64,000 bases of DNA from Patescibacteria group bacterium (lineage in GTDB: Bacteria; Patescibacteriota; Minisyncoccia; Phycocordibacterales; SBAW01), in NCBI GenBank assembly GCA_028871115.1, contig JAGWOD010000001.1, positions 4,736 through 68,735 on the forward strand. The letters are read 5' to 3'. The notes under the pieces were generated by a model. That model saw nothing but the letters and a program-made list of their open reading frames with translations. It was not told the DNA's origin and did no database searches. The number at the start of each line of letters is the position of its first letter. Positions within the stretch are counted from its first letter, which is position 1. This document shows, in pieces, positions 5,647 to 45,858 of this stretch. The position numbers were made by a program, and so were the translations under genes.

Positions 5647-5691
5647 GACTATCCCTTTGGGTCCCAAAACGTGCTAAAGTAGATAGATACT

Positions 5692-6096
5692 ATGGTGATA
5701 TTCCTTACGGCGGTGCTTCTGTGCTCTTCTTTGGGGATGGTGCTTCTTTTAGCCATTAAGCATTGGGAAGTCTCAAAAGATCGAATGCTCTTTAGATCAA
5801 CGCGGGCACAAGTTAATGAATCCTTTGCAATCTACCTTAATTTCTTCGCCTCACGTCTGCCTTCTCTGGCTCAAGAAAAAGGAAGAACTCATATAGAGGC
5901 TGTGGAAGTATGGTGTAAGGGAATGCTTGCTCGGGTACTACTCAAGGCTGAGGGGGTACTCGAAAGAATGCTCCGCACCCTCAAGCAAACTACGGCTCCG
6001 CATTCGGCTCAGGGACAAGTTTCCGCGTTCCTCCAGGAGATTGCGGAGCATAAGCGCACTCTTGCGCACACACGCGAGCACTCTCTCGCGCGGTAG
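5692..6096 (+). CDS. Hypothetical membrane-anchored protein
   Basis: ORF with an N-terminal hydrophobic segment and no recognisable family. A TGCTAAAGT -10-like element lies 12 nt upstream. Confidence 0.35.
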   Translation: MVIFLTAVLLCSSLGMVLLLAIKHWEVSKDRMLFRSTRAQVNESFAIYLNFFASRLPSLAQEKGRTHIEAVEVWCKGMLARVLLKAEGVLERMLRTLKQTTAPHSAQGQVSAFLQEIAEHKRTLAHTREHSLAR

Positions 6097-6107
6097 TATA
6101 CATCTCT

Positions 6108-6179
6108 GCCGGCATAGCTCAGTGGTAGAGCAGCGCTTTTGTAAAGCGTTGGTCGGGGGTTCAAATCCCTCTGCCGGCT
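6108..6179 (+). tRNA. tRNA-Thr (anticodon UGU)
   Basis: Cloverleaf: acceptor GCCGGCA/TGCCGGC, D-arm GCTC-AGTGGTA-GAGC, anticodon stem GCGCT/AGCGT with loop TTTGTAA (anticodon TGT), T-arm GGGGG-TTCAAAT-CCCTC, discriminator T. Confidence 0.85.
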
Positions 6180-6185
6180 CAGAAA

Positions 6186-6893
6186 TTAGAATTCCGTATT
6201 GGCGGTCGGGGAAGAAGTAGGCGTTGTTGTCGAAAGTTTTGCTATCCCGGGTGCTATTTTCAGAATATCATCGACACTTTTGAATCCGTAGACCGGTAGA
6301 CGGCTGTTGATGATGAGAGCAGGCAGCGTAGGCGCAATGGTGTGAAGTTCGATGAGCGTCTTGAGGGCTGAGAGGTCGAGATGGTAATCAAATGAATAGA
6401 CGCGCAGGGTCGGATACGTTTCCCGCAGGTAGGTGAGAACATCTCCTTCCTCTCCACAGCTACTGCAATCGCCTGCGTTGGAATAGAAATACAGAATGTA
6501 GATTGGGTGCGTACCGCACTGCATGGAGAGTTTCTCCAAAAGGAGATAATCCTGAATCTCAAGGAGTGAGTACTGTTCCTTAAGTTGGATCACCTGGGAA
6601 TTTTCAGACCCGAGTGTGTCTTCCGCGTAGGTGAGCTGATTGGCGAGAGTATTGAGCTCATCGGAGAGCACGGGATTTCCTTCATTGGAGCTTGCATAGG
6701 AGCAGGTAAGCGATCCCAGGAGTTCATACTGGGTCTCGCTCGACTGAAGATCTATGGATATTTGATCCTCCGTTGCGCGGATGTCAGCAACACGAGCTTC
6801 ATTGAAGAGGTAAGCGACGTAAAAAGCAGTCCCAAAAATAGCCGCCGTTATAAAAAGCGCGAGGGTGTATCGTCTCCAGCCTGAAAAAGTCAT
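6186..6893 (-). CDS. Membrane-anchored thioredoxin-fold protein (CSSC motif)
   Basis: N-terminal TM. A thioredoxin-like ILYFYSNAGDCSSCGEEGD motif is present. Confidence 0.45.
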   Translation of the reverse strand: MTFSGWRRYTLALFITAAIFGTAFYVAYLFNEARVADIRATEDQISIDLQSSETQYELLGSLTCSYASSNEGNPVLSDELNTLANQLTYAEDTLGSENSQVIQLKEQYSLLEIQDYLLLEKLSMQCGTHPIYILYFYSNAGDCSSCGEEGDVLTYLRETYPTLRVYSFDYHLDLSALKTLIELHTIAPTLPALIINSRLPVYGFKSVDDILKIAPGIAKLSTTTPTSSPTANTEF

Positions 6894-10863: not shown

Positions 10864-12936
10864 ATGGCTCAAAAAAGCAAAGAAGAAAAAGCGGCTGCAA
10901 AGACCGCAGTGGGCGCCTATAGCGCGGAATCTATCACGGTTCTTGAGGGGCTTGAGGCGGTACGCCGCCGTCCGGGCATGTACATAGGTACTACCGGATC
11001 CGATGGTCTCCACCACCTTATCTGGGAAGTCTTTGATAACTCTCGCGACGAGGCGATGGGAGGTTTCGCGGACGACATTGAGGTAGTGCTTCTGCCGGAA
11101 AATAGTATTCGTGTGGCGGACAATGGCCGCGGTATTCCGGTTGATGTCCACAAACAGACGAAGGTCTCCGCGCTTGAGACGGTCATGACTACTCTACACG
11201 CGGGGGGAAAGTTCGGAGGAGACGGCTATAAAGTCTCAGGAGGTCTCCACGGGGTTGGTGTCTCGGTGGTGAACGCTCTCTCCGTGTATGTGCAGGCCGA
11301 GGTACATCGGGACGGAGGCGTATATATGCAGGAGTACGCGCGGGGTAAAAAGAAAGCGTCGGTAAAAAAAATCGGAGCCTCGAAACTCCACGGCACCGTA
11401 ATTACTTTTTCCGCTGATCCGGAGATCTTCAATAAAATTGAATATGACTTCGATAAAATAGTGGCGCATCTACGAGAGCAGGCCTATCTCGTGAAGGGGC
11501 TGCGTATCAGCGTCATTGATGCTCGCGGAGGGAGCCTCAAATCTCCAGAGGCTGGGAAGGATCTCTACATACGCTCCCTACTTTCCGATTGTCCTTCCAT
11601 GACCTTCTACTTTGAAGGGGGACTTAAATCACTGGTTTCCTACTACAACCGCTATCAGAAACCTATCCATAAAAATATTTTCTATGTTGAGAAAGAGGAA
11701 GACAAGGTAGATGTCGAGATCTCCCTTCAGTACGTCGATGATGTAGCGGCACGCATGGTTGCGTTCGCCAATAATATTTACAACAGCGAAGGTGGAACGC
11801 ACGTGACAGGTTTTAAGACCGCACTCACGCGCTCGCTTAATGCCTATGCCCGTAAAAATAATCTCGCGAAGGAAAGCGATGAGAATTTTACGGGGGAGGA
11901 TGTCCTCGAAGGCCTCACGGCAGTCGTATCCGTAAAAATGCGGGAGATCCAATTTGAAGGCCAGACAAAGGGTAAATTGGGAAGCGTAGAAGCACGTGGC
12001 GCTGTTGAAACGGTATTTAGCGAAGCGTTTAGTTATTTCCTTGAAGAGAATCCGGATGATGCTCGGGCCATTATCGGCAAATCACTCCTTGCCATGAAAG
12101 CGCGCAAGGCAGCAAAGGCCGCAAAGGATTCAGTTCTGCGCAAAGGAGCCCTTGAAGGATTTGGACTGCCGGGCAAGCTCGCCGATTGTCAGAGCAAAGA
12201 GGCCGAAGAGTCTGAACTTTTCATTGTGGAGGGAGATTCCGCTGGAGGCTCAGGCAAACAGGGGCGTGATCGCCGTACCCAGGCGATTCTTCCACTGCGC
12301 GGGAAGATCCTCAACGTGGAGCGGGCCCGGCTCGATAAGATGCTTGCCTCCCAGGAAATCAGATATCTTATCCTCGCACTTGGCACTGCGATTGGTGACG
12401 TATTCGACCTATCGAAGCTTCGGTATCACAAAATCATCATTGCGACCGATGCCGACGTCGATGGAGCACATATCAGGACACTCCTCCTCACGCTTTTTTA
12501 CCGGCACTTCCGCCCAGTCATAGAAGGAGGATATCTCTATATTGCGCAACCGCCGCTTTATAAAATAAAGCGCGGTAAGGAAATTTTGTATGCATACTCT
12601 GACGATGACAAAATGAAACTACTCGGCAAAGATGCAGAAATCTCCGAGGAACCCCCCGAAGCGGGAGAGGAGAAGGACCCTGAGGCAGGGGAGGATGTTT
12701 CTGCAAAAGGGAAAAAACAAAAGATCTCCATTCAGCGCTACAAAGGTCTCGGCGAGATGAATCCTGAGGAGTTGTGGGAGACAACCATGGACCCTGCGCG
12801 CCGACAACTTAAACTTGTGACCATCGAAGATGCACAGGACGCTGACAGAGTGTTCGATATCCTTATGGGTGAGGATGTCCTATCACGTAAATCATTTATT
12901 CAAAGTAACGCCAAGCTTGCCAACCTCGATATATAA
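10864..12936 (+). CDS. gyrB: DNA gyrase subunit B
   Basis: GHKL ATPase (GLHHLIWEVFDNSRDEA), Toprim (EGDSAGGS) and a QRYKGLGEM tail. Confidence 0.9.
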   Translation: MAQKSKEEKAAAKTAVGAYSAESITVLEGLEAVRRRPGMYIGTTGSDGLHHLIWEVFDNSRDEAMGGFADDIEVVLLPENSIRVADNGRGIPVDVHKQTKVSALETVMTTLHAGGKFGGDGYKVSGGLHGVGVSVVNALSVYVQAEVHRDGGVYMQEYARGKKKASVKKIGASKLHGTVITFSADPEIFNKIEYDFDKIVAHLREQAYLVKGLRISVIDARGGSLKSPEAGKDLYIRSLLSDCPSMTFYFEGGLKSLVSYYNRYQKPIHKNIFYVEKEEDKVDVEISLQYVDDVAARMVAFANNIYNSEGGTHVTGFKTALTRSLNAYARKNNLAKESDENFTGEDVLEGLTAVVSVKMREIQFEGQTKGKLGSVEARGAVETVFSEAFSYFLEENPDDARAIIGKSLLAMKARKAAKAAKDSVLRKGALEGFGLPGKLADCQSKEAEESELFIVEGDSAGGSGKQGRDRRTQAILPLRGKILNVERARLDKMLASQEIRYLILALGTAIGDVFDLSKLRYHKIIIATDADVDGAHIRTLLLTLFYRHFRPVIEGGYLYIAQPPLYKIKRGKEILYAYSDDDKMKLLGKDAEISEEPPEAGEEKDPEAGEDVSAKGKKQKISIQRYKGLGEMNPEELWETTMDPARRQLKLVTIEDAQDADRVFDILMGEDVLSRKSFIQSNAKLANLDI

Positions 12937-12965
12937 AAAACTCCCGCTTTTAAGCGGGAGTTTTT
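12935..12965. terminator. Bidirectional Rho-independent terminator between gyrB (+) and the convergent surface-protein gene (-)
   Basis: AAAAAA-CTCCCGC-TTTTAA-GCGGGAG-TTTTT. Confidence 0.6.
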
Positions 12966-12978
12966 AGGTTGCAGGGAT

Positions 12979-14028
12979 TTAGTAGATTGTGGCGCTCGCT
13001 GTATTGTTTGCGAAATTCACGTCACCAGTCCTCTCTCCGGGGTCAGCCGTTATAGTGACCACTCCACTGGAGAGGTAGCCGCCGTTTCCTTGCGCTCCGT
13101 AGCAGGGAGCGGGGTACCCGATTGGATAGACAGGTGCCGTAGGATTGCAGTTTGACTCCTGGGAGTAGATCGGAGCCCTCCAGTTGAGCGTGTATACGAT
13201 ATAGCCTCCTGGAGGAAGCGCCTGTTGGGGTGCTGAGATGTAGGTATATGCAGGGGAGAGAGGAAGCGAAGCGGTGAAGATCCAGCCAGCGGGGGCAGTG
13301 AGAGAGCCCGCATTTCCTATTTCGAACTCCACGCTGCCCTGGCCTGCCGAGAGGATGCGCACTGACAGATCCACGCCTGCTACTTCCTGTGCGGGGTAAC
13401 CTTTGGAGACGCCTTTTACTGAGTAGCCTTTAGTTGCCGGAGCGGTTGCCACGGGGGCAGTTGTTTTTGTGGGTGCGATGGTTACCGACGCGCTTCCTGT
13501 CGCGGTTATGGCCCCTGTCGCGAGATTGACGGCTGAGACACTGATTTCTGTTGCCACATTCTTTTCTCCTGGGACATGCGGAATAAGGAGCATGTGCTCG
13601 GTCGCGTCCACATAATTAAAGGGAGTATTGCAGGGAACCGCCTGATATGCGCCGGTAGGAATAGGAGCATCAAGCGAAAGGCCGCTCGTACATGCGTAGG
13701 AAATTTCGTACCCGTATGCTCCCTCAGAGGGAGCAGCACTGTTTATGCTGTGCGTCCAAGAAACCATAAATGCGCTGCCTGAGGGCAGAGTACTTGAGGC
13801 GATCGAAACTACTACCACCTGATTCACTTGAGCTTGAGTGGGGGTGCTTGTCGATGTTTGAGGAGAAAACGGTTGGGAGAATAGGGAAGAGAACCCACCG
13901 CCGATCTCTCCAAGTACATTAGGGATATTGGAGGCAACGATAATGATGCCCCAAGCCCCGAGAATGAGGAGTAGTACCAGTCCGACTACGGTAAGGATGC
14001 GGAGCAGCTCCGTTCGCGTTTTTTCCAT
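12979..14028 (-). CDS. N-terminally membrane-anchored cell-surface protein with a C-terminal CARDB-like domain
   Basis: N-terminal TM helix, then Ser/Thr/Ala-rich Ig-like segments, then a C-terminal ...NAGSLTAPAGW...DPGERTGDVNFANNTASATI segment that resembles the CARDB fold. Confidence 0.5.
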   Translation of the reverse strand: MEKTRTELLRILTVVGLVLLLILGAWGIIIVASNIPNVLGEIGGGFSSLFSQPFSPQTSTSTPTQAQVNQVVVVSIASSTLPSGSAFMVSWTHSINSAAPSEGAYGYEISYACTSGLSLDAPIPTGAYQAVPCNTPFNYVDATEHMLLIPHVPGEKNVATEISVSAVNLATGAITATGSASVTIAPTKTTAPVATAPATKGYSVKGVSKGYPAQEVAGVDLSVRILSAGQGSVEFEIGNAGSLTAPAGWIFTASLPLSPAYTYISAPQQALPPGGYIVYTLNWRAPIYSQESNCNPTAPVYPIGYPAPCYGAQGNGGYLSSGVVTITADPGERTGDVNFANNTASATIY

Positions 14029-14100
14029 GGTGCCGCGAAGATATCATTGATAATCAATACTGTCAAGAACCCTTACTTGACAGCAACGTTATTTTAGGGT

Positions 14101-14904
14101 ATGCTTTCCAAAGCCTTGCAAATGCGAGGTAAAAGGAGCACCGTCACGGTGGATAGAAAACGCTCCTCCGTGAAGGACCCTCATAAGCACATAGACATGG
14201 ATTTGAAAGGAAAAGGCATCGTACTGGAGATAGAGGAACATCGCGTCGGCTTTTCGCTGGCGTTCATCCTTATTTTCACGGGAAGTTTTCTTTTTCTCGC
14301 GGTCCTCAACGTACTGCCCGATCCGACGGCGCAGTGGAATGAGGAGCACGGCGGTACGCCGGTTCCTGAGTACTCGCAGCCTTCATCGGTTGCAAGTACT
14401 ACTTCTTCTGCGCAGGGAAATACTGCCACTACCTCGGTAGCTGCTTTCTACGAGCAACCGGTCCGTATTGTCATTGATTCTATATCGCTTGATGTGGCGG
14501 TCTCGAACCCAACATCAACCAATGTCGGTGTCCTCGACAGCTGGCTTCTTAAGGGAGCAGTGCGCTATCCGACCTCCGCACTCTTGGGACAGTTTGGCAC
14601 CGTGCTCCTCTTCGGGCACTCGAGCTATCTCACTATCCCAGGGGATCAACCGTATAAGACCTTTGACGGTATACAGAATCTTCGAACAGGCGATGAGATC
14701 AGCGTCTATTCCTCAACCAAGGAATACCGCTACCGCGTGACTGGGGTGCGCCAGGCGAACGTCAACGATCAAAATACGTCGACGATTGAATTGCCCTCCA
14801 ACGGCCAATTCCTCACCCTCATTACTTGTGATTCCTTTGCAACTAAATCTGACCGATTTGTTGTCACTGCTCAGTTTGTAGGAACCTATTCGCTCGCGAG
14901 TTAA
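14101..14904 (+). CDS. Sortase (transpeptidase), membrane-anchored
   Basis: TM segment, then the catalytic triad context FGHSS ... LRTGDEISV ... LTLITC ... DRFVV (His, TLxTC Cys, Arg). The true start may be an internal Met, since a TTGACA-N16-TATGCT promoter overlaps 14077-14105. Confidence 0.75.
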   Translation: MLSKALQMRGKRSTVTVDRKRSSVKDPHKHIDMDLKGKGIVLEIEEHRVGFSLAFILIFTGSFLFLAVLNVLPDPTAQWNEEHGGTPVPEYSQPSSVASTTSSAQGNTATTSVAAFYEQPVRIVIDSISLDVAVSNPTSTNVGVLDSWLLKGAVRYPTSALLGQFGTVLLFGHSSYLTIPGDQPYKTFDGIQNLRTGDEISVYSSTKEYRYRVTGVRQANVNDQNTSTIELPSNGQFLTLITCDSFATKSDRFVVTAQFVGTYSLAS

Positions 14905-15068
14905 TCGCGGACGGATAGGTCCTTGCAACCCGGCATCCTCATATCTACGGACTCCGTACACATGAGTATGCCGTGAAGTGCATGGGCTCGGGCAAAGCGC
15001 CCGAAGCACCTTTCCATCAACCCCGCTTGGCTATGTTCTAGCCAGGCACTTTCTGGAGGTTAACGACA

Positions 15069-15602
15069 ATGGCTACTACGAAAAACGGTAAGTCGAAGAA
15101 GACTACTCCGAACCCCAACCTGATCAAGGTGATGTTCGAGGGCGTCCTCGATGTCTTCTTGCCCAAGAACTTCTCGACTCTCGCGCCTGCGGCCCCCGGC
15201 CCGGCTCCGACTCCACCGAAAAGTCCTCCGGTTCCGCCGGTGCATATCGGCAGTTCGAGGCACATCGGCTGGCCTGCCGTCGCGCTGGCCCTGTTGGCGC
15301 TCATCGGCGTGATCTGGCTCATCGACAACGGCTTTCCTCACCCGATCCGTCACATCGCGCTTCCCATGATTGGCGGCACGCAGAAGACAGCGGAAGTGAC
15401 CAGTACTCCGGAATGCCAGCGCGGCTGGTCCTGGAATTCGGCTCACGGCCGCTGCGAGTCTCCGACGCCTCAGAGCGAGCTCAAGCAGTACGATGTCGCG
15501 AAGGCGAATTGCAAGCCCGGCGACATCAAGCCAGTCAAGGTCAGCGTTCCGGGTCATCCGGATGTGGAGCGGATCGTGATGCAGAAGTGCGTCTACCGCT
15601 AA
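15069..15602 (+). CDS. Hypothetical Pro-rich single-pass membrane protein with a Cys-containing extracytoplasmic domain (GC-rich island)
   Basis: GGAGG SD at 15053-15057. The protein has a Pro-rich cytoplasmic stretch, a TM helix and a Cys-containing C-terminal domain. Local GC is clearly above the window average. Confidence 0.45.
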   Translation: MATTKNGKSKKTTPNPNLIKVMFEGVLDVFLPKNFSTLAPAAPGPAPTPPKSPPVPPVHIGSSRHIGWPAVALALLALIGVIWLIDNGFPHPIRHIALPMIGGTQKTAEVTSTPECQRGWSWNSAHGRCESPTPQSELKQYDVAKANCKPGDIKPVKVSVPGHPDVERIVMQKCVYR

Positions 15603-15614
15603 CTTTCAACAGGA

Positions 15615-15667
15615 CTCGGCGGAGTAGGTGTTTACACACCTACTCCGCCGAGCTCCATTTTTTTCTT
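15615..15667 (+). terminator. Strong Rho-independent terminator
   Basis: Perfect ~16-bp stem CTCGGCGGAGTAGGTGT / ACACCTACTCCGCCGAG followed by a T7 run. Confidence 0.7.
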
Positions 15668-15748
15668 GTGTTGGACTGTTTGTTCGCAATGACGTTGCGA
15701 ATAAGAAGACCCACACAAGGGTCGGCAAGCGCTACAAGGAGGAATCCA

Positions 15749-16285
15749 ATGCGCACCTTCGCCGCCCTCTTGGGAGGGCTGATGTTCTTTTCGCTTATCT
15801 GTTTCCCTTCCGTGACGTCGGCCGACGGCATGCCCGTACCCCAGCAGCAGGAATGCTCCGGATGTACGGCGTATGAGAATGCCCACGCCAAACCGAAGCC
15901 CACGAAGATCCGCCTTGTCTGTTATAAGTTCGAACAGCAGGCAAAGGATGCGGTGGTATTGACCATCCTCGATGTTCGAGGAATGACGCTTCCGCAGGAC
16001 CCCACAAAGCTCGATGCGCTTCTGAGCCAGCTCATTGCGGGCAAAGATCACATCGTTCATCGAGCTGCGTCTAAGGTCGCCAAGCCGCTCGACGAATATT
16101 GTATCGGGAAGTGGCGTGTGATCGAGGTCCTGAAGGAGGGCTACCTGGTCATTCTCTGCAACGGTCTGCCGGGCGGAAACAAGAAGGCCGTATTCAGGCC
16201 CGCCGACAGTCAGGCGATCCTGAACGGGGAGTATAGGCGGGCGTGCCTCGCGAATCATTGCGAACACGCTACGCACTCGCTCTAA
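15749..16285 (+). CDS. Hypothetical secreted Cys-containing protein (GC-rich island)
   Basis: AAGGAGG SD at 15736-15742, 6 nt before the ATG. There is a signal peptide (MRTFAALLGGLMFFSLICFPSVTSADG) and several Cys. The long upstream extension in the ORF track (from 15413) overlaps the terminator and is rejected. Confidence 0.45.
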   Translation: MRTFAALLGGLMFFSLICFPSVTSADGMPVPQQQECSGCTAYENAHAKPKPTKIRLVCYKFEQQAKDAVVLTILDVRGMTLPQDPTKLDALLSQLIAGKDHIVHRAASKVAKPLDEYCIGKWRVIEVLKEGYLVILCNGLPGGNKKAVFRPADSQAILNGEYRRACLANHCEHATHSL

Positions 16286-16293
16286 AGTCGGTT

Positions 16294-16335
16294 TGTCTCG
16301 GGCGGCCCAAAACCGCCCGAGACACCCCTATTTTA
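16294..16335 (+). terminator. Rho-independent terminator after the island
   Basis: GTCTCGGGCGG-CCCAAAA-CCGCCCGAGAC hairpin followed by a T-rich tract. Confidence 0.55.
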
Positions 16336-16392
16336 AGTACTTGACAAAACGAATGATTCATTTATAATTACTTTTGTTCAAATTAGATTGTT

Positions 16393-17601
16393 ATGAAAAA
16401 CACCTCCAAAAATAACGTTTCTTTTCTTTTTAAAGCCACAGTAATGGCAGTTATCTCTATTGGCATGTTTGCTGGTTCTCTTCAGTTTGCCCAAGCGCAG
16501 GAGACTCTGGATGGAGGCTGTTGCGGCTCAACTGGCTGGGACACCACTGGGGGTACAGACTCCTACGCTCCTTCGACGGGTTGGGATACTACGTCAGGAA
16601 CTGATTCCTATGTTCCTAGCACCGGCTGGGACACCACTGCGGGTACAGATTCCTATGTACCCTCAACTGGTTGGGACACGATTTCAGGAACTGATTCTTA
16701 TGTGCCGTATAGTTCGGCTCCGACCTATACCGCTTCAGGTGACTATACAGCCACCGGTAGCTACCTCCCTTCATATGGATATAGTTCAGCTTCTTACGGT
16801 GGGTATGCTCTCGGAGGCGCGTTTGGCTACAGCAATCCTTCTTACAGTCGCGTCTACGCACCGACGACGGTACTCACCAATACCATCGATAACGGGAACA
16901 GCTGTACTGCTATAAATAGCTGCAATACGAATACTACGGTCTCATCGCCGACAACCATCAGCTATAACAATTCTTCGCCGAGCTACCCTCTTTACCCCAT
17001 TTATCCTAGCTACCCTTCGTATCCGACCTATCCTTCGGCATATCAAGCTCCGACCTGCTCAATCCAAGTTTCTCCCTCAGTAGTCGCCTATGGGCAAGGA
17101 GTGACCCTCTCATGGACAAGTTCTGGAGCTACGTCAGGCAATATCTCTAATATTGGAAACGTCGCTCCGTCGGGCACTACCTACCTCAACGCGTACCAGA
17201 CGATTGTCTACAATGGCACCTTCTATGGTCCGGCTGGCTCTACGAATTGCTCGGCTACTATATCCGTCTCTGGATACAACAATCCCGCTCCGTACGTAAC
17301 CCTCAGTCAAGTGCCCTACACTGGCCTTGATCTGGGACCGACCGGCACCGCGCTCTACTGGCTCTTCCTTGTCCTTTGGTGTGCTATCGCTGCCTACTTT
17401 ATAGCGGTAAAGAAAATCCACATCCGAATCATCAATTGGTCTCGGGGATTCTTCCTCGGTGACGCGGATACGGTAGCTCATCCAGCCTACCAAGGGGCAC
17501 ACTCCAGCGCTGCGAAGCATTCGCTAGCCCACACTGTTCAGTCAGGAGTTGATACGGTAGATAATTTTATCCTCGCTCAGGTTCATCGCGGACATCGGTA
17601 A
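16393..17601 (+). CDS. Secreted repeat-containing surface protein with a C-terminal VPYTG motif plus hydrophobic segment plus basic patch (sortase-substrate-like)
   Basis: Signal peptide, then 4x 15-aa repeat STGWDTTxGTDSYxP, a Tyr/Ser/Pro-rich low-complexity region (PSYPSYPTYP) and an Ig-like domain. The C-terminus reads ...LSQVPYTGLDLGPTG-TALYWLFLVLWCAIAAYFIAV-KKIHIRI..., followed by ~55 more residues. Confidence 0.6.
   Translation: MKNTSKNNVSFLFKATVMAVISIGMFAGSLQFAQAQETLDGGCCGSTGWDTTGGTDSYAPSTGWDTTSGTDSYVPSTGWDTTAGTDSYVPSTGWDTISGTDSYVPYSSAPTYTASGDYTATGSYLPSYGYSSASYGGYALGGAFGYSNPSYSRVYAPTTVLTNTIDNGNSCTAINSCNTNTTVSSPTTISYNNSSPSYPLYPIYPSYPSYPTYPSAYQAPTCSIQVSPSVVAYGQGVTLSWTSSGATSGNISNIGNVAPSGTTYLNAYQTIVYNGTFYGPAGSTNCSATISVSGYNNPAPYVTLSQVPYTGLDLGPTGTALYWLFLVLWCAIAAYFIAVKKIHIRIINWSRGFFLGDADTVAHPAYQGAHSSAAKHSLAHTVQSGVDTVDNFILAQVHRGHR
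16528..16707 (+). repeat. Intragenic tandem repeat, 4 x 45 bp organised as an ABAB 90-bp duplication
   Basis: Units 1/3 and 2/4 are nearly identical at the DNA level (ggctgggacaccactg.gggtacaga.tcctac / ggttgggatac.ac.tcaggaactgattc.tatgt). Confidence 0.8.
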
Positions 17602-17686: not shown

Positions 17687-18934
17687 TTATCCTAAACGCC
17701 TTGTTGCTTCTTCGCTTAGTCGCGAGAGTATCTCTTGTATGGGCAGTGCTCCAATTTTACCCTTGTCGCGACTCTCGAGAGTCGCTGTTTCGTTTTGCAT
17801 TTCTTCATCTCCGACGACAAGTAAATAGGGGATTCTGGTCGTTTTTGCTTCACGGATCTTTTTGCCAAGCGTCTCGTCGCTTTCATCGACCTGTGCTCGC
17901 AATCCCGCTCCCTCGAGCGCTCCTAAAACCTCACGAGCAAATTGCTTATGCTTTTCACCAATTGGCAAGACGCGCACCTGAACGGGCGAGAGCCAGAGGG
18001 GGAGATTGCCTGCTAGGTGCTCAAGTAGAACAGCAGTGCATCGCTCGAGAGAACCTGTTATTGCGCTGTGAATCATCACAATACGCTCTTTCTCGCCTTT
18101 TTCATTGATACACGTGAGATCGAAGCGTTCAGGAATATTGAAATCGAGTTGAATAGTCGCCACCTGATGGTTCCGACCGATTGAGTCGGTAGCCATGAAA
18201 TCGAGTTTGGGACCATAGAGAGCCGCTTCTCCTGGCGCTTCGAAGTAGTCGGCTTTTCTCGTCTGTGCAATCTCGCGTAGTGCATTCTCAGCATTGTTCC
18301 AAATAGCCGCTGTTCCAAGATATTTTTCAGGATGGGCAGGATCGTGGAAGGAAAGGCGAGCACGCAATTTAAAACCAAAGGTACTCCAGAATGTGTCGAC
18401 GATATCCCAAATACGAAGAAATTCCTCGCGAACCTGTGTTTGTCTGCAGAAAACATGGCTATCATCCTGGGTAATCGAGAGTACTCGGGTGAGACCACCG
18501 AGTTCGCCCGATTGTTCGTCGCGATAGACCATTGTTGTCTCCGCGTAGCGCTGCGGCATCTCGCGGTAGGAATGAGGGCGACGATCGAATATTTGAGTAT
18601 GGTGAGGACAGTTCATGGGTTTGAGAGCATACTCTCGCCCTTCACGCGATGTAATACGGAAGAGATCTTCGCCGAATTTTTCCCAGTGTCCGGAGCGTTC
18701 GTAGAGCTCCCGCTTGGTGATGTGGGGGATCGTCACGCGTTGATAGCCATGTCGAGACCGTAATTCCCAGACGTATCGATCGAGTTCTTGGCGCAGTATT
18801 GTTCCGCGCGGGGTCCACAGAGGTAACCCAGAACCTACAAGTTCGGAAAAGGTAAAGAGATCAAGTTCGCGTCCGATAGTGCGATGATCGCGCTCATCCG
18901 CTCCTTCCTGACTTTGGGGCGTTTTTTGTACCAT
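17687..18934 (-). CDS. thrS: Threonine--tRNA ligase, catalytic plus anticodon-binding domains only (no N-terminal TGS/editing domains)
   Basis: ALKPMNCPHHTQIF class II motif and ThrRS-type catalytic core. At 415 aa it is well short of the ~640 aa of canonical bacterial ThrRS. Confidence 0.85.
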   Translation of the reverse strand: MVQKTPQSQEGADERDHRTIGRELDLFTFSELVGSGLPLWTPRGTILRQELDRYVWELRSRHGYQRVTIPHITKRELYERSGHWEKFGEDLFRITSREGREYALKPMNCPHHTQIFDRRPHSYREMPQRYAETTMVYRDEQSGELGGLTRVLSITQDDSHVFCRQTQVREEFLRIWDIVDTFWSTFGFKLRARLSFHDPAHPEKYLGTAAIWNNAENALREIAQTRKADYFEAPGEAALYGPKLDFMATDSIGRNHQVATIQLDFNIPERFDLTCINEKGEKERIVMIHSAITGSLERCTAVLLEHLAGNLPLWLSPVQVRVLPIGEKHKQFAREVLGALEGAGLRAQVDESDETLGKKIREAKTTRIPYLLVVGDEEMQNETATLESRDKGKIGALPIQEILSRLSEEATRRLG

Positions 18935-19480: not shown

Positions 19481-22400
19481 TTACAATGCCTTGAGTGCTT
19501 CTGCCACGAGGGAGAGTTCACCGTTTCGATTTGAGAGACGACCTTTGAGCGCGATACAGGAATCTGGCTTAAGAAGTGCACGGTATTCAGTGAAGGATTT
19601 TGGGAATACCACTGCCTCTATTGAGCCGTTAAAATCGGCTATCTTTATAAACGCCATTTGATCGCCGGCCTTGGTAAGTACGGTACGCATTTCCTCGATG
19701 ATTCCGCCGGTAACTGCGCTCATGCCGGGCTGGAGTTTCTCACGCAGTTCCTCGATAGTCATGGAACGCTTTGCGAGTTTTTCGCGCACCCGCTCAAGCG
19801 GGTGCCCCGAGACATACAAACCAAGGAGTTCCTTCTCCCATTGCAATTTCTCCTCGAGAGGTGCGGGCGGGGAGGGGAAAAGAGCAAGGTCATTGATTTC
19901 TCCTAAGCCCGCGAAAAGCGACTGTTGGGAACTTTCTCCTGCAGAACGATGATATTCGAGAATGCGTTCAATATTGGCCAACAAATTACCACGTTCACCA
20001 AAGCTATCGAGCGCGCCACACTGGATAAGTGCCTCCAGAGCTTTTTTATTGAGCGCTTGCTCTTGTACGCGCCGCAAAAAATCAGAAAGAGAAACAAAAC
20101 GGCCGTGAAGTTTTCGTTCGGTAATAATCGCTCCAGCGACTCCCTGGCCAAAATTCTTTATTGAATAAAGACCGAAACGAATTGCATCTCGGTTCGTTCC
20201 CGAAGCCAGTCGTGCCGCTTTCTCTGTTTTCTCTTCGCTCGCGCCAAGCACCACGGTGAAGTCCCCGAAACTTTCATTGATATCGGGAGGCAGGACTGGG
20301 ATGCCCATGCGCTTGCATTCAGTGACCATAATGCCTGTCGTATCAACATCGCCTGCTTCCGCCGTGAGGATAGCTGCCATGTACTCGATGGGATAGTTGG
20401 CTTTCATATACGCCGTTTGATAGGCAACCTTGCCGTAACTTGCTGCATGCGCTTTGTTGAATCCGTACGCAGCGAATGGTTCGATAAGCTTCCAGAGACG
20501 CTCGGCTCGTTGTTTGCCCATCCCATTTTGTATCGCGCCTGCGATAAGCTTTTCTTTCTGAGCCTCCATTTCAGCAGGTATCTTCTTGCCCATCGCCTTG
20601 CGTAGGGCATCAGCTTCAAGCCAGGAATATCCCGCAAGCCGCACTGCGATGAGGAGCACATCATCCTGATAGGTAATGACTCCGTAGGAGCGCTCAAGGA
20701 TGTCTTCCATGCGAGGATCGAGATAGGTAATGAGGGCAGGGTTATGTTTGCGCTCAATATACGCAGGGATCATTTCCATAGGGCCGGGGCGGAAGAGTGC
20801 GACCATGGCATTGATGTCGTGGATCGTAGTCGGCCGGAGCTCCTTGAGGAAGCGAGTCATACCTGACCCGTTGAGCTGGAAGGTCCCTTCAGTCTCTCCG
20901 TTGGCGAGCATCTCAAACGTTTTGCGGTCATTGAGGGGCACATTCTCTATGTCGATCTTAATGCCCCGTGTTTTCTCGACGAGCTTTACCGAACTGGCGA
21001 GTATAGAAAGGTTGCGGATGCCAAGGAAATCGAATTTCAGAAGACCCACGTCCTCGACCGAGTACATATCGTACTGAGTGATTATCTTGCCGCCCTTCGG
21101 ATCTTTTTGGAGCGGTGTGTAATGGACCAGAGTCTCTGGCGCGATGACAACGCCTGCCGCGTGCACGCTGATATGCCTTGCACACCCCTCGATTTTTCGG
21201 CCGAGGTCGATAATCTCCCGCGTCTCCTCTTCTTCTTTGTACATTTTTGCGAGTTCGGGATTTTCTTTGAGAGCTCGTTCGAGCGTCATGGGAAATCCTT
21301 GCGAACCGAAGGGCACCTCTTTTGCGATCCGATCGCCAAGTCCGTAGGCATAGCCAAGCGCGCGTGCCACATCCCGCACGACGCCCCGGGCGAGCATCGT
21401 TCCGAAAGTTCCTATCTGCGCCACATGCGTTTCTCCGTATTTTTTGCGCGCATATTCAATGACTTCGTCGCGTCGCGTATCGGCGAAGTCCATGTCGATA
21501 TCAGGAGCCTTCGGCCGCTCCGGGTTAAGGAAACGCTCGAACGGAAGCTGGTAGGTGATTGGATTAACGTTAGTGATGAAAGTGAGGTAGGAGATAAGAG
21601 AGCCGGCAGCGCTGCCGCGGGTTGTGGTGAGGATGCCGTGTTCGCGTGCAAAGGAAAGAAGATCCGCCACCACCAAGAAATAGGGTGCAAATCCTTTTTC
21701 CGCTATGATGCTGAACTCGTAGTCTACTCGCTTGCGCATCTCTAGCGTTGGCTCCATGCCCCGCAGGGAAAATCCTCTCTCGATGAGGGAGTGCAATTCT
21801 TTTTCGTAGGAGGAGCCTCCACTAAGAGGGAAGGCCGGAAATACCCATGATCCTAAGTCGAATTCGAGCGAACAACGCTCAGCGATTACGGATGCATTCT
21901 CAAGCGCCTCCGGAATATCTGCAAAAAGTTTCTCCATTTGTTCGGCACTCTGGAGAGAGAAATCCTCTTCATTGCCGCCGATATCTCCTTCTTCGGAAGG
22001 TCCCCGATTCTCTATAGCTCGCATCACAGTCCAGGCGCGACGATCATCGGGGGAGAGATAGAAGATTTCCTGGCCTGCAACGAGAGGTATATGTTCTCGA
22101 ATAGCTGACTCTCGAAGTGTTTCCATGGCGGCGTCGTGTCCATCGATTTCGGGATGAACTGAAACTTCAAGGTAGACGTTATCGTCCCCGAATATTGAGC
22201 GATATTCATCGACAACTTTCTTTATACGCTTGTTTTCGTTACTGCGGAGAATAGAAGTGATTTCTCCTCCGAGCGACGGGATGATGGAAATAAGTCCCTC
22301 AGCGTATTTCTTGAGTAACTCCCGCGAGACGACCGGAGAAGGGGAGTCGCTTAGATGAGATTCTGTGACAAGCGCGAGTAGATTTCGGTAGCCAGTTTCG

Positions 22401-22657
22401 TTTTGAGCAAGGAGGACAAGGCGGTGTTTATTCTCCCCGCTCTGCAGAGTCGCGTCGAGGCCGATAATAGCTTTGAGCCCCGCATGCTCGCATTCTTTAT
22501 AGAATTCGATAGCGCCATATAAATTATCTCTGTCAGTAAGCGCCAAACTTTTGCATCCGGCCGCTTTTGCCGCAGCCACGAGATCAGGAATTTTTGGCAG
22601 AGCCTGCAGAAGCGAGTAGTGGGAGTGGACGTGTAAGTGGGTAAAGCGGCCAGGCAT
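19481..22657 (-). CDS. dnaE: DNA polymerase III alpha subunit
   Basis: PHP domain N-terminus (HLHVHSHYSLL), polymerase core and a C-terminal OB fold. Confidence 0.9.
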   Translation of the reverse strand: MPGRFTHLHVHSHYSLLQALPKIPDLVAAAKAAGCKSLALTDRDNLYGAIEFYKECEHAGLKAIIGLDATLQSGENKHRLVLLAQNETGYRNLLALVTESHLSDSPSPVVSRELLKKYAEGLISIIPSLGGEITSILRSNENKRIKKVVDEYRSIFGDDNVYLEVSVHPEIDGHDAAMETLRESAIREHIPLVAGQEIFYLSPDDRRAWTVMRAIENRGPSEEGDIGGNEEDFSLQSAEQMEKLFADIPEALENASVIAERCSLEFDLGSWVFPAFPLSGGSSYEKELHSLIERGFSLRGMEPTLEMRKRVDYEFSIIAEKGFAPYFLVVADLLSFAREHGILTTTRGSAAGSLISYLTFITNVNPITYQLPFERFLNPERPKAPDIDMDFADTRRDEVIEYARKKYGETHVAQIGTFGTMLARGVVRDVARALGYAYGLGDRIAKEVPFGSQGFPMTLERALKENPELAKMYKEEEETREIIDLGRKIEGCARHISVHAAGVVIAPETLVHYTPLQKDPKGGKIITQYDMYSVEDVGLLKFDFLGIRNLSILASSVKLVEKTRGIKIDIENVPLNDRKTFEMLANGETEGTFQLNGSGMTRFLKELRPTTIHDINAMVALFRPGPMEMIPAYIERKHNPALITYLDPRMEDILERSYGVITYQDDVLLIAVRLAGYSWLEADALRKAMGKKIPAEMEAQKEKLIAGAIQNGMGKQRAERLWKLIEPFAAYGFNKAHAASYGKVAYQTAYMKANYPIEYMAAILTAEAGDVDTTGIMVTECKRMGIPVLPPDINESFGDFTVVLGASEEKTEKAARLASGTNRDAIRFGLYSIKNFGQGVAGAIITERKLHGRFVSLSDFLRRVQEQALNKKALEALIQCGALDSFGERGNLLANIERILEYHRSAGESSQQSLFAGLGEINDLALFPSPPAPLEEKLQWEKELLGLYVSGHPLERVREKLAKRSMTIEELREKLQPGMSAVTGGIIEEMRTVLTKAGDQMAFIKIADFNGSIEAVVFPKSFTEYRALLKPDSCIALKGRLSNRNGELSLVAEALKAL

Positions 22658-28403: not shown

Positions 28404-28706
28404 ATGCGCTTTAAGAAGCCACCTGCCACTCTAGCAGAACGGACAGTATCGGGTTCCTACGAAGTCGCCTGGGGCGTCGTCGATTCGGCGGACATGCGAT
28501 GGGCTCCGTTTCTGTTGCGTCTTCGGAACCGTGTCCAAGACGACTGGGAAGTGCCCAAGAACGCAAATACAGTGCTTGATGTCAGCGCGGATCTCTACGC
28601 GCTTGGGGTTATTCCCAAAGGAGTCAAGATTCCGACTAGCCCGAGCGAACTTCAAGAGCTCCTGAATTCCATGGGCTCCACGCAGGCCTCCGAGCCAGTC
28701 TCCTAG
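28404..28706 (+). CDS. Hypothetical small protein
   Basis: GGAGGGG SD 4 nt upstream of the ATG. It overlaps the convergent rnr stop by 4 nt. Confidence 0.4.
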   Translation: MRFKKPPATLAERTVSGSYEVAWGVVDSADMRWAPFLLRLRNRVQDDWEVPKNANTVLDVSADLYALGVIPKGVKIPTSPSELQELLNSMGSTQASEPVS

Positions 28707-45103: not shown

Positions 45104-45823
45104 TTATTGTCCCGTGCTTGAGGCGGTTGTCGAGGTGGAGATCGATTGTCCGATTGCCTGGAGTACCTGATCGACCGCTGCTCGCATGGAAGCGTATGGC
45201 TGGTCTCCTACAAGCTGAAGCACCGGTTGATTATTTGCCATGATCACAATTGAAGGCGTTCCCTGGAATCCCTCTGCGATTGCTTCGTTGTAATCAGCCT
45301 GAACTTTTGATGCGAACTGATTGCTGTTGAGGCACTGATTGAATTGCTGTACGTTGAGGCCCACTTCACCAGCGACCACGGGGAGCTGGGAGAGATCAAG
45401 CCCGTTGTCGGAGGGAGTTATTGAATAGATGGTGTCTATGTACTTAAAGAATGCAGTATTTCCACCAAGCGAGGCCGCACACTCAGCCGCCTGTGACTCC
45501 TCAGGCGCCTTGGAGTGTATCTGGGCGAGTGGGAAGGGGCGGAATACCCACGCGACCTTACCGGAGGGGCCGTAATACTGCATAAGCTGATCCATCGTGG
45601 ACTCGAAGTTCTTGCAGAAGGGGCACTCAAGGTCCGCATACTCGACTATCTTTACGGGAGCATTTGGATTGCCATAGATGTGATCTGTTGAATCGACCGG
45701 ACGTACTGCCTGAGTGGCGGTGTTCCCTGAAGAGCCTGGGTTGCGACTTATTAAAAAGACACCACCTGCAATAAGAATGCCCACAACCACGATACTAATG
45801 GGGAGTACGTATTGGCTTTTCAT
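45104..45823 (-). CDS. Membrane-anchored DsbA-family thiol:disulfide oxidoreductase
   Basis: TM anchor, a thioredoxin fold with CPFC and a DsbA-like helical insertion. The start is at internal Met 29 (MKSQYVLPISIVVVG). Confidence 0.7.
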   Translation of the reverse strand: MKSQYVLPISIVVVGILIAGGVFLISRNPGSSGNTATQAVRPVDSTDHIYGNPNAPVKIVEYADLECPFCKNFESTMDQLMQYYGPSGKVAWVFRPFPLAQIHSKAPEESQAAECAASLGGNTAFFKYIDTIYSITPSDNGLDLSQLPVVAGEVGLNVQQFNQCLNSNQFASKVQADYNEAIAEGFQGTPSIVIMANNQPVLQLVGDQPYASMRAAVDQVLQAIGQSISTSTTASSTGQ

Positions 45824-45858
45824 ACTATGTAATTTATATGTACTGTAATTATAGCACT

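Follow-up and report, generated by a model that had tools for sequence, protein, structure and literature searches.

A GC3-rich gene pair beside a Patescibacteria sortase gene probably fills a hypervariable slot whose contents are exchanged within the clade

Two neighbouring ORFs in a 64,000-nt stretch of a Patescibacteria metagenome-assembled genome (MAG), hereafter called the window, are far richer in GC at third codon positions (GC3) than the genes around them. They lie between a sortase gene and the gene for a repeat protein with a PYTG motif, and a sequence-only reading of the DNA had taken them for an island acquired from a higher-GC donor and inserted next to the sortase. This raises the question of whether the pair is foreign DNA or whether its composition has a source closer to the locus itself. 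Our analysis indicates that the apparent island is probably a hypervariable slot of a conserved Patescibacteria cell-surface locus, the contents of which are exchanged within the clade. The coordinates given in the sequence-only reading were accurate, and the features of the locus are as follows.

14101-14904, + strand: sortase gene (Pfam PF04203, E = 1.1e-18), conserved left anchor
14905-15068, + strand: sortase-ORF1 spacer, strongly structured, holding the Shine-Dalgarno (SD) site of ORF1
15055-15059, + strand: SD site of ORF1, GGAGG, 9 nt upstream of the ATG
15069-15602, + strand: ORF1, 177 aa, GC3 0.77, orphan in the first slot position
15615-15664, + strand: intrinsic terminator of ORF1 (stem-loop 15615-15652, run of seven T at 15658-15664)
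15653-15748, + strand: structured leader of the ORF2-family gene (long hairpin at about 15664-15720, then the SD AAGGAGG)
15736-15742, + strand: SD site of ORF2, AAGGAGG, 6 nt upstream of the ATG
15749-16285, + strand: ORF2, 178 aa, GC3 0.72, predicted secreted protein with 8 Cys
16294-16334, + strand: intrinsic terminator of ORF2 (stem-loop 16294-16324, short run of four T)
16341-16368, + strand: sigma-70-type promoter of the PYTG-protein gene (TTGACA-N16-TATAAT, 12/12 consensus match)
16393-17601, + strand: PYTG repeat protein, 402 aa, GC3 0.50 (native), conserved right anchor

The GC contents of ORF1 and ORF2 are 0.610 and 0.577, and their GC3 values are 0.770 and 0.721 (z = +4.35 and +3.52 against the background genes of the window). 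The 49 other long ORFs in the window, which define the background for GC3, have a value of 0.515 ± 0.059 with a maximum of 0.645, and none of 370 size-matched in-frame background chunks reaches the GC3 of either ORF. The windowed comparison of GC3 and codon usage therefore gives a clear deviation from the window background, and the description of the pair as GC-rich and biased at third positions holds. Because GC1 and GC2 are ordinary in both ORFs, the excess of GC is synonymous; amino-acid composition was rejected as the source of the high GC3 on the same grounds. Codons ending in A are scarce (A3 of 0.04 in ORF1 and 0.10 in ORF2, compared with 0.16-0.29 elsewhere). The codon usage of the pair is fitted better by GC-rich hosts of the clade than by its own genome (+0.079 nat/codon, with the same measure at -0.154 nat/codon for core genes of the window), and the CTC-Leu preference of the clade is kept. 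The intergenic spacers of the stretch are only mildly enriched in GC.

The sortase scores 67.6 bits against PF04203, for which the Pfam gathering cut-off is 26.6, and its NCBIfam matches are class E/C-like, all under the curated cut-offs. Its composition is native (GC3 0.57). The 402-aa protein on the other side of the slot contains VPYTG at residues 307-311 (nt 17311-17325), after which come a hydrophobic segment and KK; homologues bearing [VIL]PYTG occupy the same position in relatives. The adjacent sortase probably has this protein as its substrate. A search anchored on the sortase alignment yielded 80 related loci. The order gyrB, a 349-aa membrane protein encoded on the opposite strand, sortase, small secreted ORFs, PYTG protein, thrS and dnaE is found in dozens of related contigs, including L004, L009, L011, L014, L015/16 and many metagenome loci; the named relatives in the clade are labelled Kaiserbacteria and Adlerbacteria. 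The slot between the sortase and the PYTG gene or genes accommodates one to five genes for small, secreted or membrane-anchored, Cys-containing proteins.

The genes identified between 8.2 and 23.7 kb of the window are pheS, pheT, gyrB, sortase, thrS, dnaE and RNase HII, with neighbours identified through the Pfam labels on their homologues in L015/L016. No integrase is among them, and the 349-aa, PYTG, 126-aa and 111-aa proteins gave no recombinase-family match. No recombinase was seen in the related loci either, with the one exception of an unrelated Y1 transposase that lies some 8 kb off in L015/16. There is no tRNA within about 9 kb of the slot (the only one in the window is at 6108-6180), and nothing convincing in the way of flanking direct or inverted repeats or att sites was seen around it. 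A phage or plasmid origin was rejected, with no significant PHROG match and no blastn match, as was membership of a defence system, with none assigned by PADLOC. A literature search for sortase loci in Patescibacteria or for a PYTG sorting motif returned nothing relevant.

An SD site with a 5-mer match is present in just five of the 52 window genes, ORF1 and ORF2 included, in agreement with the earlier observation that the pair has strong SD sites and many native genes do not. Each ORF ends in a strong intrinsic terminator, as had also been proposed. That of ORF1 consists of a 17-bp perfect stem with a 4-nt loop (-39.3 kcal/mol, z = -9.7), and that of ORF2 of a 12-bp stem with a 7-nt loop (-27.4 kcal/mol, z = -5.2). 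Of 15 loci, 14 have a structural equivalent of the ORF2 terminator 3′ of their ORF2-family gene; the exception is L014, in which the gene is followed by an imperfect inverted repeat with no T run. The TTGACA/TATAAT promoter further downstream is conserved in 12 of the 15 loci and marks where the variable slot ends on the right.

The leader of the ORF2-family gene is conserved as a structure. In a 13-locus alignment analysed with RNAalifold, 89% of the cells are paired compared with 74% in shuffles (0/500), and compensatory changes occur in 17 of the 21 stem pairs, with slid controls at no more than 47%. The covariance model scores 72.9 bits in the window and detects further copies upstream of other slot ORFs in relatives, and the minimum free energy fold of the window copy gives the same hairpin (z = -3.6). 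The abundance of G·U pairs when the hairpin is read on the sense strand suggests an RNA. No Rfam family matched 15653-15748; in a scan of 14500-16800 at E up to 1, a minus-strand NrrF match and a mir-55 match to the terminator hairpin came up, both at chance level. The loci repeat one order of elements: terminator, leader, SD, coding sequence (CDS), terminator, TTGACA/TATAAT promoter. The slot genes examined are separate units, each equipped with a strong SD and a terminator, and many of them also have a conserved structured leader. These regulatory elements (SD, terminator, leader, downstream promoter) are thus ancestral features of the locus and not borne by an island, so that the SD sites and terminators do not count as the cargo of an island, as the sequence-only reading had it.

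ORF2 has a signal-like N-terminal segment along with its 8 Cys, as expected from its earlier description as a Cys-containing protein with a signal peptide. Exhaustive HMMER searching, alignments and a profile search identify it as a member of an uncharacterised, clade-restricted family, and the HMMER and profile searches gave no member outside the Patescibacteria clade. The proteins of this family are about 110-150 aa long when mature and share a set of four to five conserved Cys. In an alignment of 17 sequences, C36, C39, G78 and C137 do not vary and Q63 hardly does, whereas C58, C118, G120 and the N138-G139 of an LCNG motif are invariant only in a closer set of eight. The closest non-self match to ORF2 is 42% identical. 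Comparison of ORF2 with its copy in a second sample gives a dN/dS of 0.15, indicating purifying selection. The AlphaFold2 model built with the family alignment has a core pLDDT of 85-91, whereas the single-sequence model is unusable (pLDDT 46). No significant structural neighbours of the predicted fold were found, BFVD fold matches included, and no PDB sequence matched ORF2. Neither ORF1 nor ORF2 has a significant profile match among the curated families (Pfam, NCBIfam, PHROGs, PADLOC and PDB sequences), and neither C-terminus (...VMQKCVYR in ORF1 and ...CEHATHSL in ORF2) carries an LPXTG-type motif or a hydrophobic segment. The window also encodes a membrane-anchored DsbA-like oxidoreductase, which fits disulfide-bonded exported proteins.

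At least 15 distinct related loci have an ORF2-family gene in this place, which is downstream of the sortase and immediately 5′ of the PYTG gene; the family members are always co-oriented with the sortase and adjoin the PYTG gene wherever the contig includes it. The comparison of syntenic loci, which the sequence-only reading had set beforehand as the test of its own proposal, therefore found genes of this family in the same position in relatives, and for ORF2 the view of a module inserted next to the sortase and absent from relatives does not stand.

The situation is different for ORF1, which is an orphan. It contains 13% Pro, with an N-terminal part rich in Lys and Pro, a single hydrophobic segment at residues 66-84, and a C-terminal domain with Cys116, Cys129, Cys148 and Cys174, in line with its earlier description as a Pro-rich single-pass membrane protein. 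Its sole match in the database search is itself, in the NCBI MAG, and no contigs encoding it are on record. Profile searches gave nothing in Pfam, NCBIfam or PADLOC and a chance-level PHROG match only (E = 0.039). The homology searches suggested in the earlier reading thus place ORF2 in a clade-restricted family and return ORF1 alone for ORF1. A jackhmmer search of the local ORF set suggested that ORF1 belongs to a post-sortase 4-Cys lipoprotein family (L036, L086, L073, L063, L052 and L028). This assignment was rejected; a profile of the family built without ORF1 does not report it at E up to 10, and the link reflects a drifting profile whose marginal seed was L083 (E = 0.003). Pairwise tests of ORF1 against the neighbours in L016, L014, L009, L011 and L039 were not significant, and no homology was found between ORF1 or ORF2 and the two GC3-rich lipoprotein genes in the L004 slot. 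ORF1 carries a short Cys-loop motif that is enriched among slot proteins, a pattern recognized post hoc. In relatives, its position is filled by other small secreted ORFs. The spacer preceding ORF1 has a GC content of 0.56 (intergenic mean 0.444 ± 0.067) and a stable fold over 14920-15068 (-59.3 kcal/mol, z = -4.3). In the alignment with the closest relative, L009, DNA homology stops about 25 nt past the sortase stop codon, and we therefore place the left boundary of the slot near 14930.

Comparison of related loci with each other illustrates how variable the slot is between its conserved flanks. In L016 versus L079/L078 and in L051 versus L044, DNA homology of 75-88% extends through gyrB and the sortase and is lost over the slot CDSs. 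It returns in the same pairs over about 70-100 nt upstream of the ORF2-family ATG (78-94%) and again after the stop codon, where it covers about 160-175 nt at 91-94% between L016 and L079/L078 and amounts to 75% between L051 and L044. The ORF2-family CDSs enclosed by the 91-94% flanks are not alignable. L015 and L079 share 92% identity in the sortase and 94% in GyrB but only 32% in their ORF2-family alleles, and the distant L051 has an allele with 55% identity to that of L079; L051 and L044 are 90% identical in GyrB and 28% in the alleles. The relationships of the alleles are accordingly incongruent with those of their hosts (Mantel r = 0.27, versus 0.82 for sortase against GyrB). The alleles nearest to ORF2 of the window, those of L009 (41%) and L014 (39%), belong to its nearest hosts by both sortase and GyrB. 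At the population level, ORF2 accounts for 15 of the 17 differences that separate the window from the second sample, L001 (Fisher p = 0.005), with a dS of 0.084 in ORF2 compared with 0.0045 per site in the flanks. This cluster, as read from the two sequences, looks like an imported tract and not like relaxed constraint.

The GC3 of the slot is almost independent of that of the host. ORF2-family genes have GC3 values of 0.52-0.75 in hosts of 0.37-0.76, with a slope of 0.23 ± 0.13 (n = 15), and the slope for whole slots is 0.38 ± 0.11 over 30 loci, in which genes of metagenome loci were called by a crude longest-ORF rule. Median GC3 is 0.65 for the slot and 0.66 for the host (host range 0.33-0.77). 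The difference between slot and host is +0.13 in low-GC3 hosts and -0.08 to -0.14 in the GC-richest ones. Several unrelated slot genes have a high GC3 in low-GC hosts, as in L011 (slot genes 0.67-0.72 against 0.39) and L004 (0.67-0.68 against 0.51), and the sortase and PYTG genes beside GC3-rich slots have a GC3 at host level or lower. Within the class A alleles, which are 35-45% identical, GC3 is nearly flat over host values of 0.39-0.76, which could equally reflect a gene-specific equilibrium. The window background of 0.51 belongs to the bottom tenth of the clade; because the genome is at the low-GC end of its clade, the cassette looks like a GC-rich island.

Such an equilibrium is the core of the alternative that deserves the most attention, and we consider it possible, though unlikely. 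The slot would have been inherited vertically, and a force specific to its genes, either mRNA selection or GC-biased gene conversion at a hot spot of recombination, would hold their GC3 at about 0.65-0.75 in every host, so that they stand out only in GC-poor genomes. The nearly flat GC3 of the ORF2 family, even among anciently diverged alleles (35-45% identity), speaks for it, as do the nearest alleles of the window being in its nearest hosts and ORF2 being a local hot spot of synonymous diversity; recombining genes reportedly have a higher GC3 in many bacteria. However, the high GC3 ends abruptly where the conserved flanks begin, whereas conversion tracts should spill into the sortase and PYTG genes, and alleles of different classes are too divergent for heteroduplex formation. 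The force would also have to hit several unrelated slot families while sparing the PYTG protein, which is equally secreted. A one-way push does not explain the GC3-poorer slots of the GC-richest hosts, which correspond to regression to a pool mean, and vertical inheritance is at odds with sister genomes that demonstrably bear replaced cassettes.

A classical genomic island, in which a two-gene module came recently from an unrelated higher-GC organism and settled by the sortase, would account for a GC3 far over the background, for the SD sites and terminators of the pair and for an ORF1 that has no homologue in the databases searched. We nevertheless regard it as improbable, and for ORF2 it is largely refuted by a family that sits in the same position in related loci and is confined to the clade, next to regulatory elements ancestral to the locus. 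The pair retains clade-specific codon preferences, has no phage or plasmid similarity, and lies apart from any tRNA, convincing repeat or integrase within the limits given above. Very high expression of both ORFs might likewise produce a biased codon usage, and the strong SD sites, strong terminators and strong promoter nearby could be read in this way; but the genes read from the window translations as ribosomal proteins L25, S2 and S16, EF-Ts and the RNA polymerase subunit have an ordinary GC3 of 0.50-0.58 and A3 of 0.16-0.22, which makes this explanation very improbable. Least credible of all is a chimeric join of a contig from a GC-richer organism into the MAG during assembly or binning. 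The source is indeed a metagenome-assembled genome, and the second assembly does not contain the left junction between sortase and ORF1. On the other hand, that independent assembly (L001, SRR32006840) spans the 3′ end of ORF1, ORF2 and the start of the PYTG gene with the same junctions, the gene order is repeated in many relatives, and the homology with L009 runs on past the stop codon of the sortase.

Exchange of slot contents within the clade is the reading we favour. Import from a GC-richer genome is the most economical account of the high GC3, and to this extent the earlier proposal of a higher-GC donor stands; what does not stand is a foreign donor. Because the codon usage matches that of GC-rich clade members, the donor is likely to have been a relative with the same locus, and GC-richer relatives are the most likely source of the present slot contents. 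Recombination within the conserved intergenic stretches on either side, the leader before the gene and the terminator and promoter after it, would replace coding cassettes as a whole, and alleles would therefore circulate among the lineages of the clade. If turnover of the slot outpaces compositional amelioration, its GC3 would reflect the pool of the clade (about 0.65) and not the resident genome. ORF2 would then be the local allele of its family, and ORF1 an orphan occupant of the first position. Because no near-identical allele of either ORF was found in GC-richer genomes by the database and profile searches, we infer the transfer into the window genome, with its direction and recency, from these patterns and did not observe it. 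The nearest alleles are in the nearest hosts, and vertical descent of this particular allele is therefore possible.

With regard to function, the gene context and predicted features suggest that the slot products may work outside the cell as disulfide-bonded proteins, together with the PYTG protein anchored by the sortase, in recognition of a partner or host cell, a role that would be under diversifying pressure. An attached life on other microbes is assumed for the Patescibacteria (CPR), and to our knowledge almost nothing is known of the surface molecules for their partner recognition beyond type IV pili. A bolder version, to which we give little weight, is that the slot is a dedicated cassette system of these ultra-small episymbionts, composed of arrayed units of leader, SD, disulfide-rich secreted protein and terminator. 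The leader hairpin of about 60 nt might be a novel regulatory RNA through which a single signal controls expression of the whole array or, alternatively, a homology or recombination handle for shuffling between lineages, and the variable proteins might decorate a sortase-anchored PYTG fibre and set which host cell is recognized.

What appeared to be a foreign two-gene island thus becomes a defined and widespread locus comprising a sortase, its probable non-canonical PYTG substrate and rapidly exchanged, secreted Cys-rich proteins, features expected of arms-race molecules at a cell-cell interface. It adds an uncharacterised protein family and a covariation-supported RNA motif absent from Rfam. 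It also suggests that a GC3 island can arise when the hypervariable slot of a compositional-outlier genome samples the gene pool of its clade, a slot that island callers would misreport as foreign DNA.

Several known systems share parts of this organization. With a genomic island or phage moron, the pair has in common a deviant GC3, translation signals and terminators of its own, but here there is no integrase among the neighbouring genes identified, no convincing direct repeat, no phage context and no tRNA within about 9 kb, and relatives possess both the slot and the ORF2 family. Integron cassette arrays are similar, in resemblance only, in their small single-ORF units and in an imperfect hairpin conserved in structure more than in sequence. 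In contrast to integrons, no integrase is seen in the locus, the hairpin is 5′ of the ORF between terminator and SD and is G·U-rich on the sense strand, suggesting RNA, and the cassettes come with an SD and a terminator of their own.

Gram-positive bacteria have sortase-dependent gene clusters for surface proteins and pili, such as the pneumococcal rlrA islet and the Corynebacterium spa clusters. As in these, a sortase gene is adjacent to that of a repeat-rich secreted protein with a sorting-type motif, a hydrophobic segment and basic residues, and small accessory exported proteins are encoded in a cluster whose content varies by strain. However, the motif here is (V/I)PYTG instead of LPXTG, the membrane segment is followed by 60-270 further residues, a sorting signal is absent from ORF1 and ORF2, and the sortase falls under the NCBIfam cut-off of every named class. 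The small genes each form a separate unit of transcription and translation that includes a structured leader, and the cluster is fixed between the housekeeping genes gyrB and thrS, unlike the mobile islets.

Cassettes replaced through their flanks are known from the pneumococcal blp bacteriocin/immunity region and from the capsule loci between dexB and aliA. These share with the slot the conserved flanks around non-alignable allelic cassettes, the incongruence between allele phylogeny and host, and a cassette base composition that departs from that of the genome. The cargo differs, being an uncharacterised family of secreted Cys-rich proteins with no transporter, double-glycine leader or biosynthetic genes seen. 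In addition, exchange in the Patescibacteria locus spans lineages with GyrB only 75-94% identical, and its flanks are short intergenic regulatory elements instead of genes.

Both ORF1 (15069-15602) and ORF2 (15749-16285), which lie downstream of the sortase gene (14101-14904), were found where the sequence-only reading had placed them, and the richness in GC at third codon positions (GC3) that it described was borne out by calculation. Against a background of 0.515 ± 0.059 (maximum 0.645) for the 49 other long ORFs in the window, GC3 is 0.770 in ORF1 (z = 4.35) and 0.721 in ORF2 (z = 3.52), values attained by none of 370 size-matched in-frame chunks of the background genes. GC1 and GC2 are ordinary, and the shift mostly reflects a low number of A-ending codons (A3 of 0.04 and 0.10 versus 0.16-0.29 elsewhere). 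In codon usage the pair is closer to GC-rich hosts of the same clade than to its own genome, and the CTC-Leu preference of the clade is retained.

The signals of this region, including the gene of the downstream repeat protein with a VPYTG motif (PYTG protein), are as follows.

15055-15059, + strand: canonical Shine-Dalgarno (SD) site of ORF1, GGAGG
15615-15652, + strand: first terminator, -39.3 kcal/mol, z = -9.7, followed by T7
15653-15748, + strand: structured leader (hairpin approximately 15664-15720) with the same fold as the conserved hairpin, z = -3.6
15736-15742, + strand: canonical SD site of ORF2, AAGGAGG
16294-16324, + strand: second terminator, -27.4 kcal/mol, z = -5.2
16341-16368, + strand: perfect TTGACA-N16-TATAAT promoter, 3' of the second terminator
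16393-17601, + strand: PYTG repeat protein gene; (V/I)PYTG (VPYTG at 17311-17325), then a hydrophobic segment and basic residues

The strong SD sites and the two strong terminators of the earlier description are thus present, and the scarcity of SD sites in native genes also holds, with a 5-mer SD in just 5 of the 52 window genes. Besides ORF1 and ORF2, two others of these five, at 61305-62039 (+) and 28404-28706 (+), have high GC3 (0.64 and 0.62) and no Pfam match, and might likewise be imported or cassette-like. A TAnn[AC]T box was located 4-22 nt from the start codon in 16/52 genes. Many window genes have a TATAAT-like box 7-12 nt 5' of the start (for example, upstream of 8212, 17687-18934(-), 19481-22657(-), and 42985-44208(-)) and most lack an SD, which suggests that leaderless or very short-leader mRNAs are widespread in this genome. 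The spacer between the sortase gene and ORF1 (14905-15068) is rich in GC for intergenic DNA and folds unusually strongly (-59.3 kcal/mol, z = -4.3); it has no Rfam match, and its counterpart in the related contig L009 ends after the first ~25 nt.

Related loci were gathered with ThrRS as the anchor and later with the sortase. Their order is pheS-pheT-gyrB, a 349-aa protein gene on the opposite strand, the sortase gene, small ORFs, one or more [VIL]PYTG repeat protein genes (the motif is accompanied by a hydrophobic segment), thrS, and dnaE. It is kept in L004 (a Kaiserbacteria MAG), L014, L015/16, and many metagenome contigs. In L005, the whole sortase module is missing and thrS abuts gyrB; its gyrB (11612-15031) contains an insert of ~1.27 kb that is unalignable to the window GyrB and leaves the ORF open, and which may be an intein. 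The thrS genes in the conserved position of L016 (13197-14450), L071 (11852-13105), and L037 (6358-7587) are only 43-47% identical to that of the window, compared with 72-79% in most other relatives, suggesting that they were probably replaced by a different ThrRS type.

An exhaustive HMMER search detected distant relatives of ORF2 (P0003 with 42% identity and E = 6e-32, and five weaker ones), which are located downstream of the sortase in the same arrangement in every contig with enough flank. A family HMM extended the set to 10 additional distinct metagenome loci anchored on the sortase; in each of them the gene has the orientation of the sortase gene and, where the contig includes the PYTG gene, lies immediately 5' of it. 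A signal peptide and a framework of conserved cysteines are common to the proteins: in a 17-sequence alignment, C36, C39, G78, and C137 do not vary and Q63 hardly does, and a closer 8-sequence set adds C58, C118, G120, N138, and G139 as invariant positions. Against 5.8 billion proteins, the family profile gave only eight matches, all unnamed or hypothetical and one from an Adlerbacteria MAG. The family is conserved and restricted to this clade. ORF2 has no match in Pfam, NCBIfam, PADLOC, PHROGs, or PDB sequences, in agreement with the secreted, Cys-containing product of unknown family proposed earlier. Its AlphaFold2 model, built from the family alignment, has a confident α/β core (pLDDT 85-91 over residues ~50-170) for which Foldseek gave no significant neighbour in either PDB or BFVD; among PDB entries the top match, a TssJ-like β-sandwich, was not significant (E = 0.012, TM 0.33).

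Across loci, the surroundings of the ORF2-family gene are constant. The upstream gene ends in a terminator, after which come a structured ~100-nt leader and a strong SD; the coding sequence is followed by a strong terminator and, before the PYTG gene, a TTGACA/TATAAT promoter. The SD, terminators, and leader are ancestral features of this locus. The long hairpin formed by the leader is strongly supported by covariation: 89% of alignment cells are paired versus 74% in shuffles (0/500), and 17 of 21 pairs show compensatory changes (slid controls, ≤47%). The abundance of G·U pairs implies an RNA of the sense strand, which has no Rfam counterpart. A covariance model found extra copies before other small secreted Cys-rich ORFs and one before a PYTG protein, always on the sortase strand (L037 3600-3698; L039 9827-9931 and 10325-10428; L057 10329-10434). 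The region between the sortase and PYTG genes (the slot) in several relatives is accordingly an array of self-contained units, each with a leader, SD, small secreted protein, and terminator. In some copies (e.g. L014), the pyrimidine-rich 5' end can pair with the SD instead, which hints at a possible switch.

ORF1 has a Lys-/Pro-rich N-terminal part, a single hydrophobic segment (aa 66-84), as expected for the Pro-rich single-pass membrane protein of the earlier description, and a four-Cys C-terminal domain. Its sole database match is itself, in the NCBI MAG labelled "Patescibacteria group bacterium". A local jackhmmer link to a four-Cys post-sortase family was rejected because a profile built without ORF1 gave E > 10, and pairwise comparisons with slot proteins of other loci were not significant; ORF1 remains an orphan. 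The Cys-loop motif C-x(1-3)-G-x(1-2)-[FWY]-x(4-8)-C, common to ORF1 and that family, is ~5-fold enriched in slot ORFs (15/264 vs 43/3543), which is suggestive, the pattern having been set after the sequences were seen.

The sequence-only reading regarded the pair as an island inserted beside the sortase. This part did not hold: what lies beside the sortase is a hypervariable slot that is itself conserved, with the ORF2 family at the same position in relatives. In close relatives, DNA homology of 75-88% across gyrB and the sortase gene stops at the sortase end, the slot coding sequences have no detectable DNA homology, and homology resumes over the ~70-100 nt directly 5' of the ORF2-family ATG (78-94%). 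Between L016 and L079/L078 it is also found over the ~160-175 nt after the stop (91-94%); between L051 and L044 the downstream stretch is only 75% identical. L015 and L079 share 92% identity in the sortase, 94% in GyrB, and 32% in the ORF2-family protein, and the L079 allele is 55% identical to that of the distant L051. L051 and L044 have 90% identical GyrB and 28% identical alleles. When all pairs are taken, the identity of the ORF2-family proteins shows a weak correlation with that of the sortases (r = 0.27), versus r = 0.82 between sortase and GyrB. A 984-bp contig of another sample (L001) carries a 97% identical ORF2 between the same flanks and so gives independent confirmation of the right-hand junctions. 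At population scale the pattern recurs: 15 of the 17 differences between this contig and the window fall inside ORF2 (p = 0.005) and are mainly synonymous (dS 0.084, versus 0.0045 per site in the flanks), fitting an imported tract rather than relaxed constraint. The dN/dS of ORF2 against L001, 0.15, indicates a real gene under purifying selection. The slot is hypervariable and its alleles are mobile.

Expression-linked codon bias was excluded as the source of the high GC3, since the ribosomal-protein, EF-Ts, and RNA polymerase genes have values of 0.50-0.58. GC3 of the ORF2 family is 0.52-0.75 irrespective of host GC3 (0.37-0.76; slope 0.23 ± 0.13, 15 loci), exceeding the host by 0.15 to 0.27 in five GC-poor hosts and differing by ~0 to -0.07 in GC-rich ones. 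For whole slots, the slope is 0.38 ± 0.11 (30 loci), the median of 0.65 equals the clade host median of 0.66, and in the GC-richest hosts slot GC3 is below the host's own. Such a pattern is regression towards a shared pool. The window background (0.51) is in the bottom tenth of the clade, with only one of the 30 hosts lower. The conserved flanks delimit the effect: in the GC-poor L011 and L004, several unrelated slot genes are GC3-rich and the neighbouring sortase and PYTG genes are not. In L053, a gene for a secreted 275-aa protein (5676-6503; GC3 0.80, host ~0.51) seems to be a further GC3-rich cassette, in this case at a second site in the locus: it is placed upstream of the sortase, with the 349-aa-protein homologue on one side and an extra PYTG gene on the other.

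The main rival explanation, which keeps some probability because no near-identical donor allele was found among the sampled genomes, invokes a force specific to these genes, for example GC-biased gene conversion at a hot spot of recombination (Lassalle et al. 2015, PMC4450053). The best explanation is import of GC-richer DNA from relatives with the same locus. Hence the earlier proposal of acquisition from a higher-GC donor stands as to import, with the donor sought among such relatives. Genomes that still share ~85% identity in the flanking DNA have had their cassettes replaced, from which we infer that turnover outpaces synonymous-site amelioration. A cassette in a GC-poor genome would then keep the pool composition, which would explain the present case.

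The window also encodes a membrane-anchored DsbA/thioredoxin-like oxidoreductase (45104-45907, -), which fits the formation of disulfides outside the cytoplasm of this organism. Because the slot proteins are predicted to be exported, Cys-rich, hypervariable, and encoded between the sortase gene and that of its probable PYTG substrate, we propose that they may be disulfide-bonded extracellular proteins that, together with the repeat protein anchored by the sortase, serve to recognise partners or hosts and are under diversifying pressure. Full-text searches of the literature gave nothing relevant to the ORF2 family, the leader RNA, or the locus, which, given this and their absence from the searched family libraries, appear to be undescribed. 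These searches gave no paper on a PYTG motif either. The PYTG gene of the window has 45-nt tandem repeats at 16531-16706, with units (S/T)TGWDTTxGTDSYxP, and homologues elsewhere have other short aromatic/Asp repeats (e.g. YDYGTAT and YPEYDST). The (V/I)PYTG motif is conserved in homologues from L004, L003, L014, L016, and others, and is probably a non-canonical sorting signal for the adjacent sortase, unusual in that 60-270 more residues follow the membrane segment.
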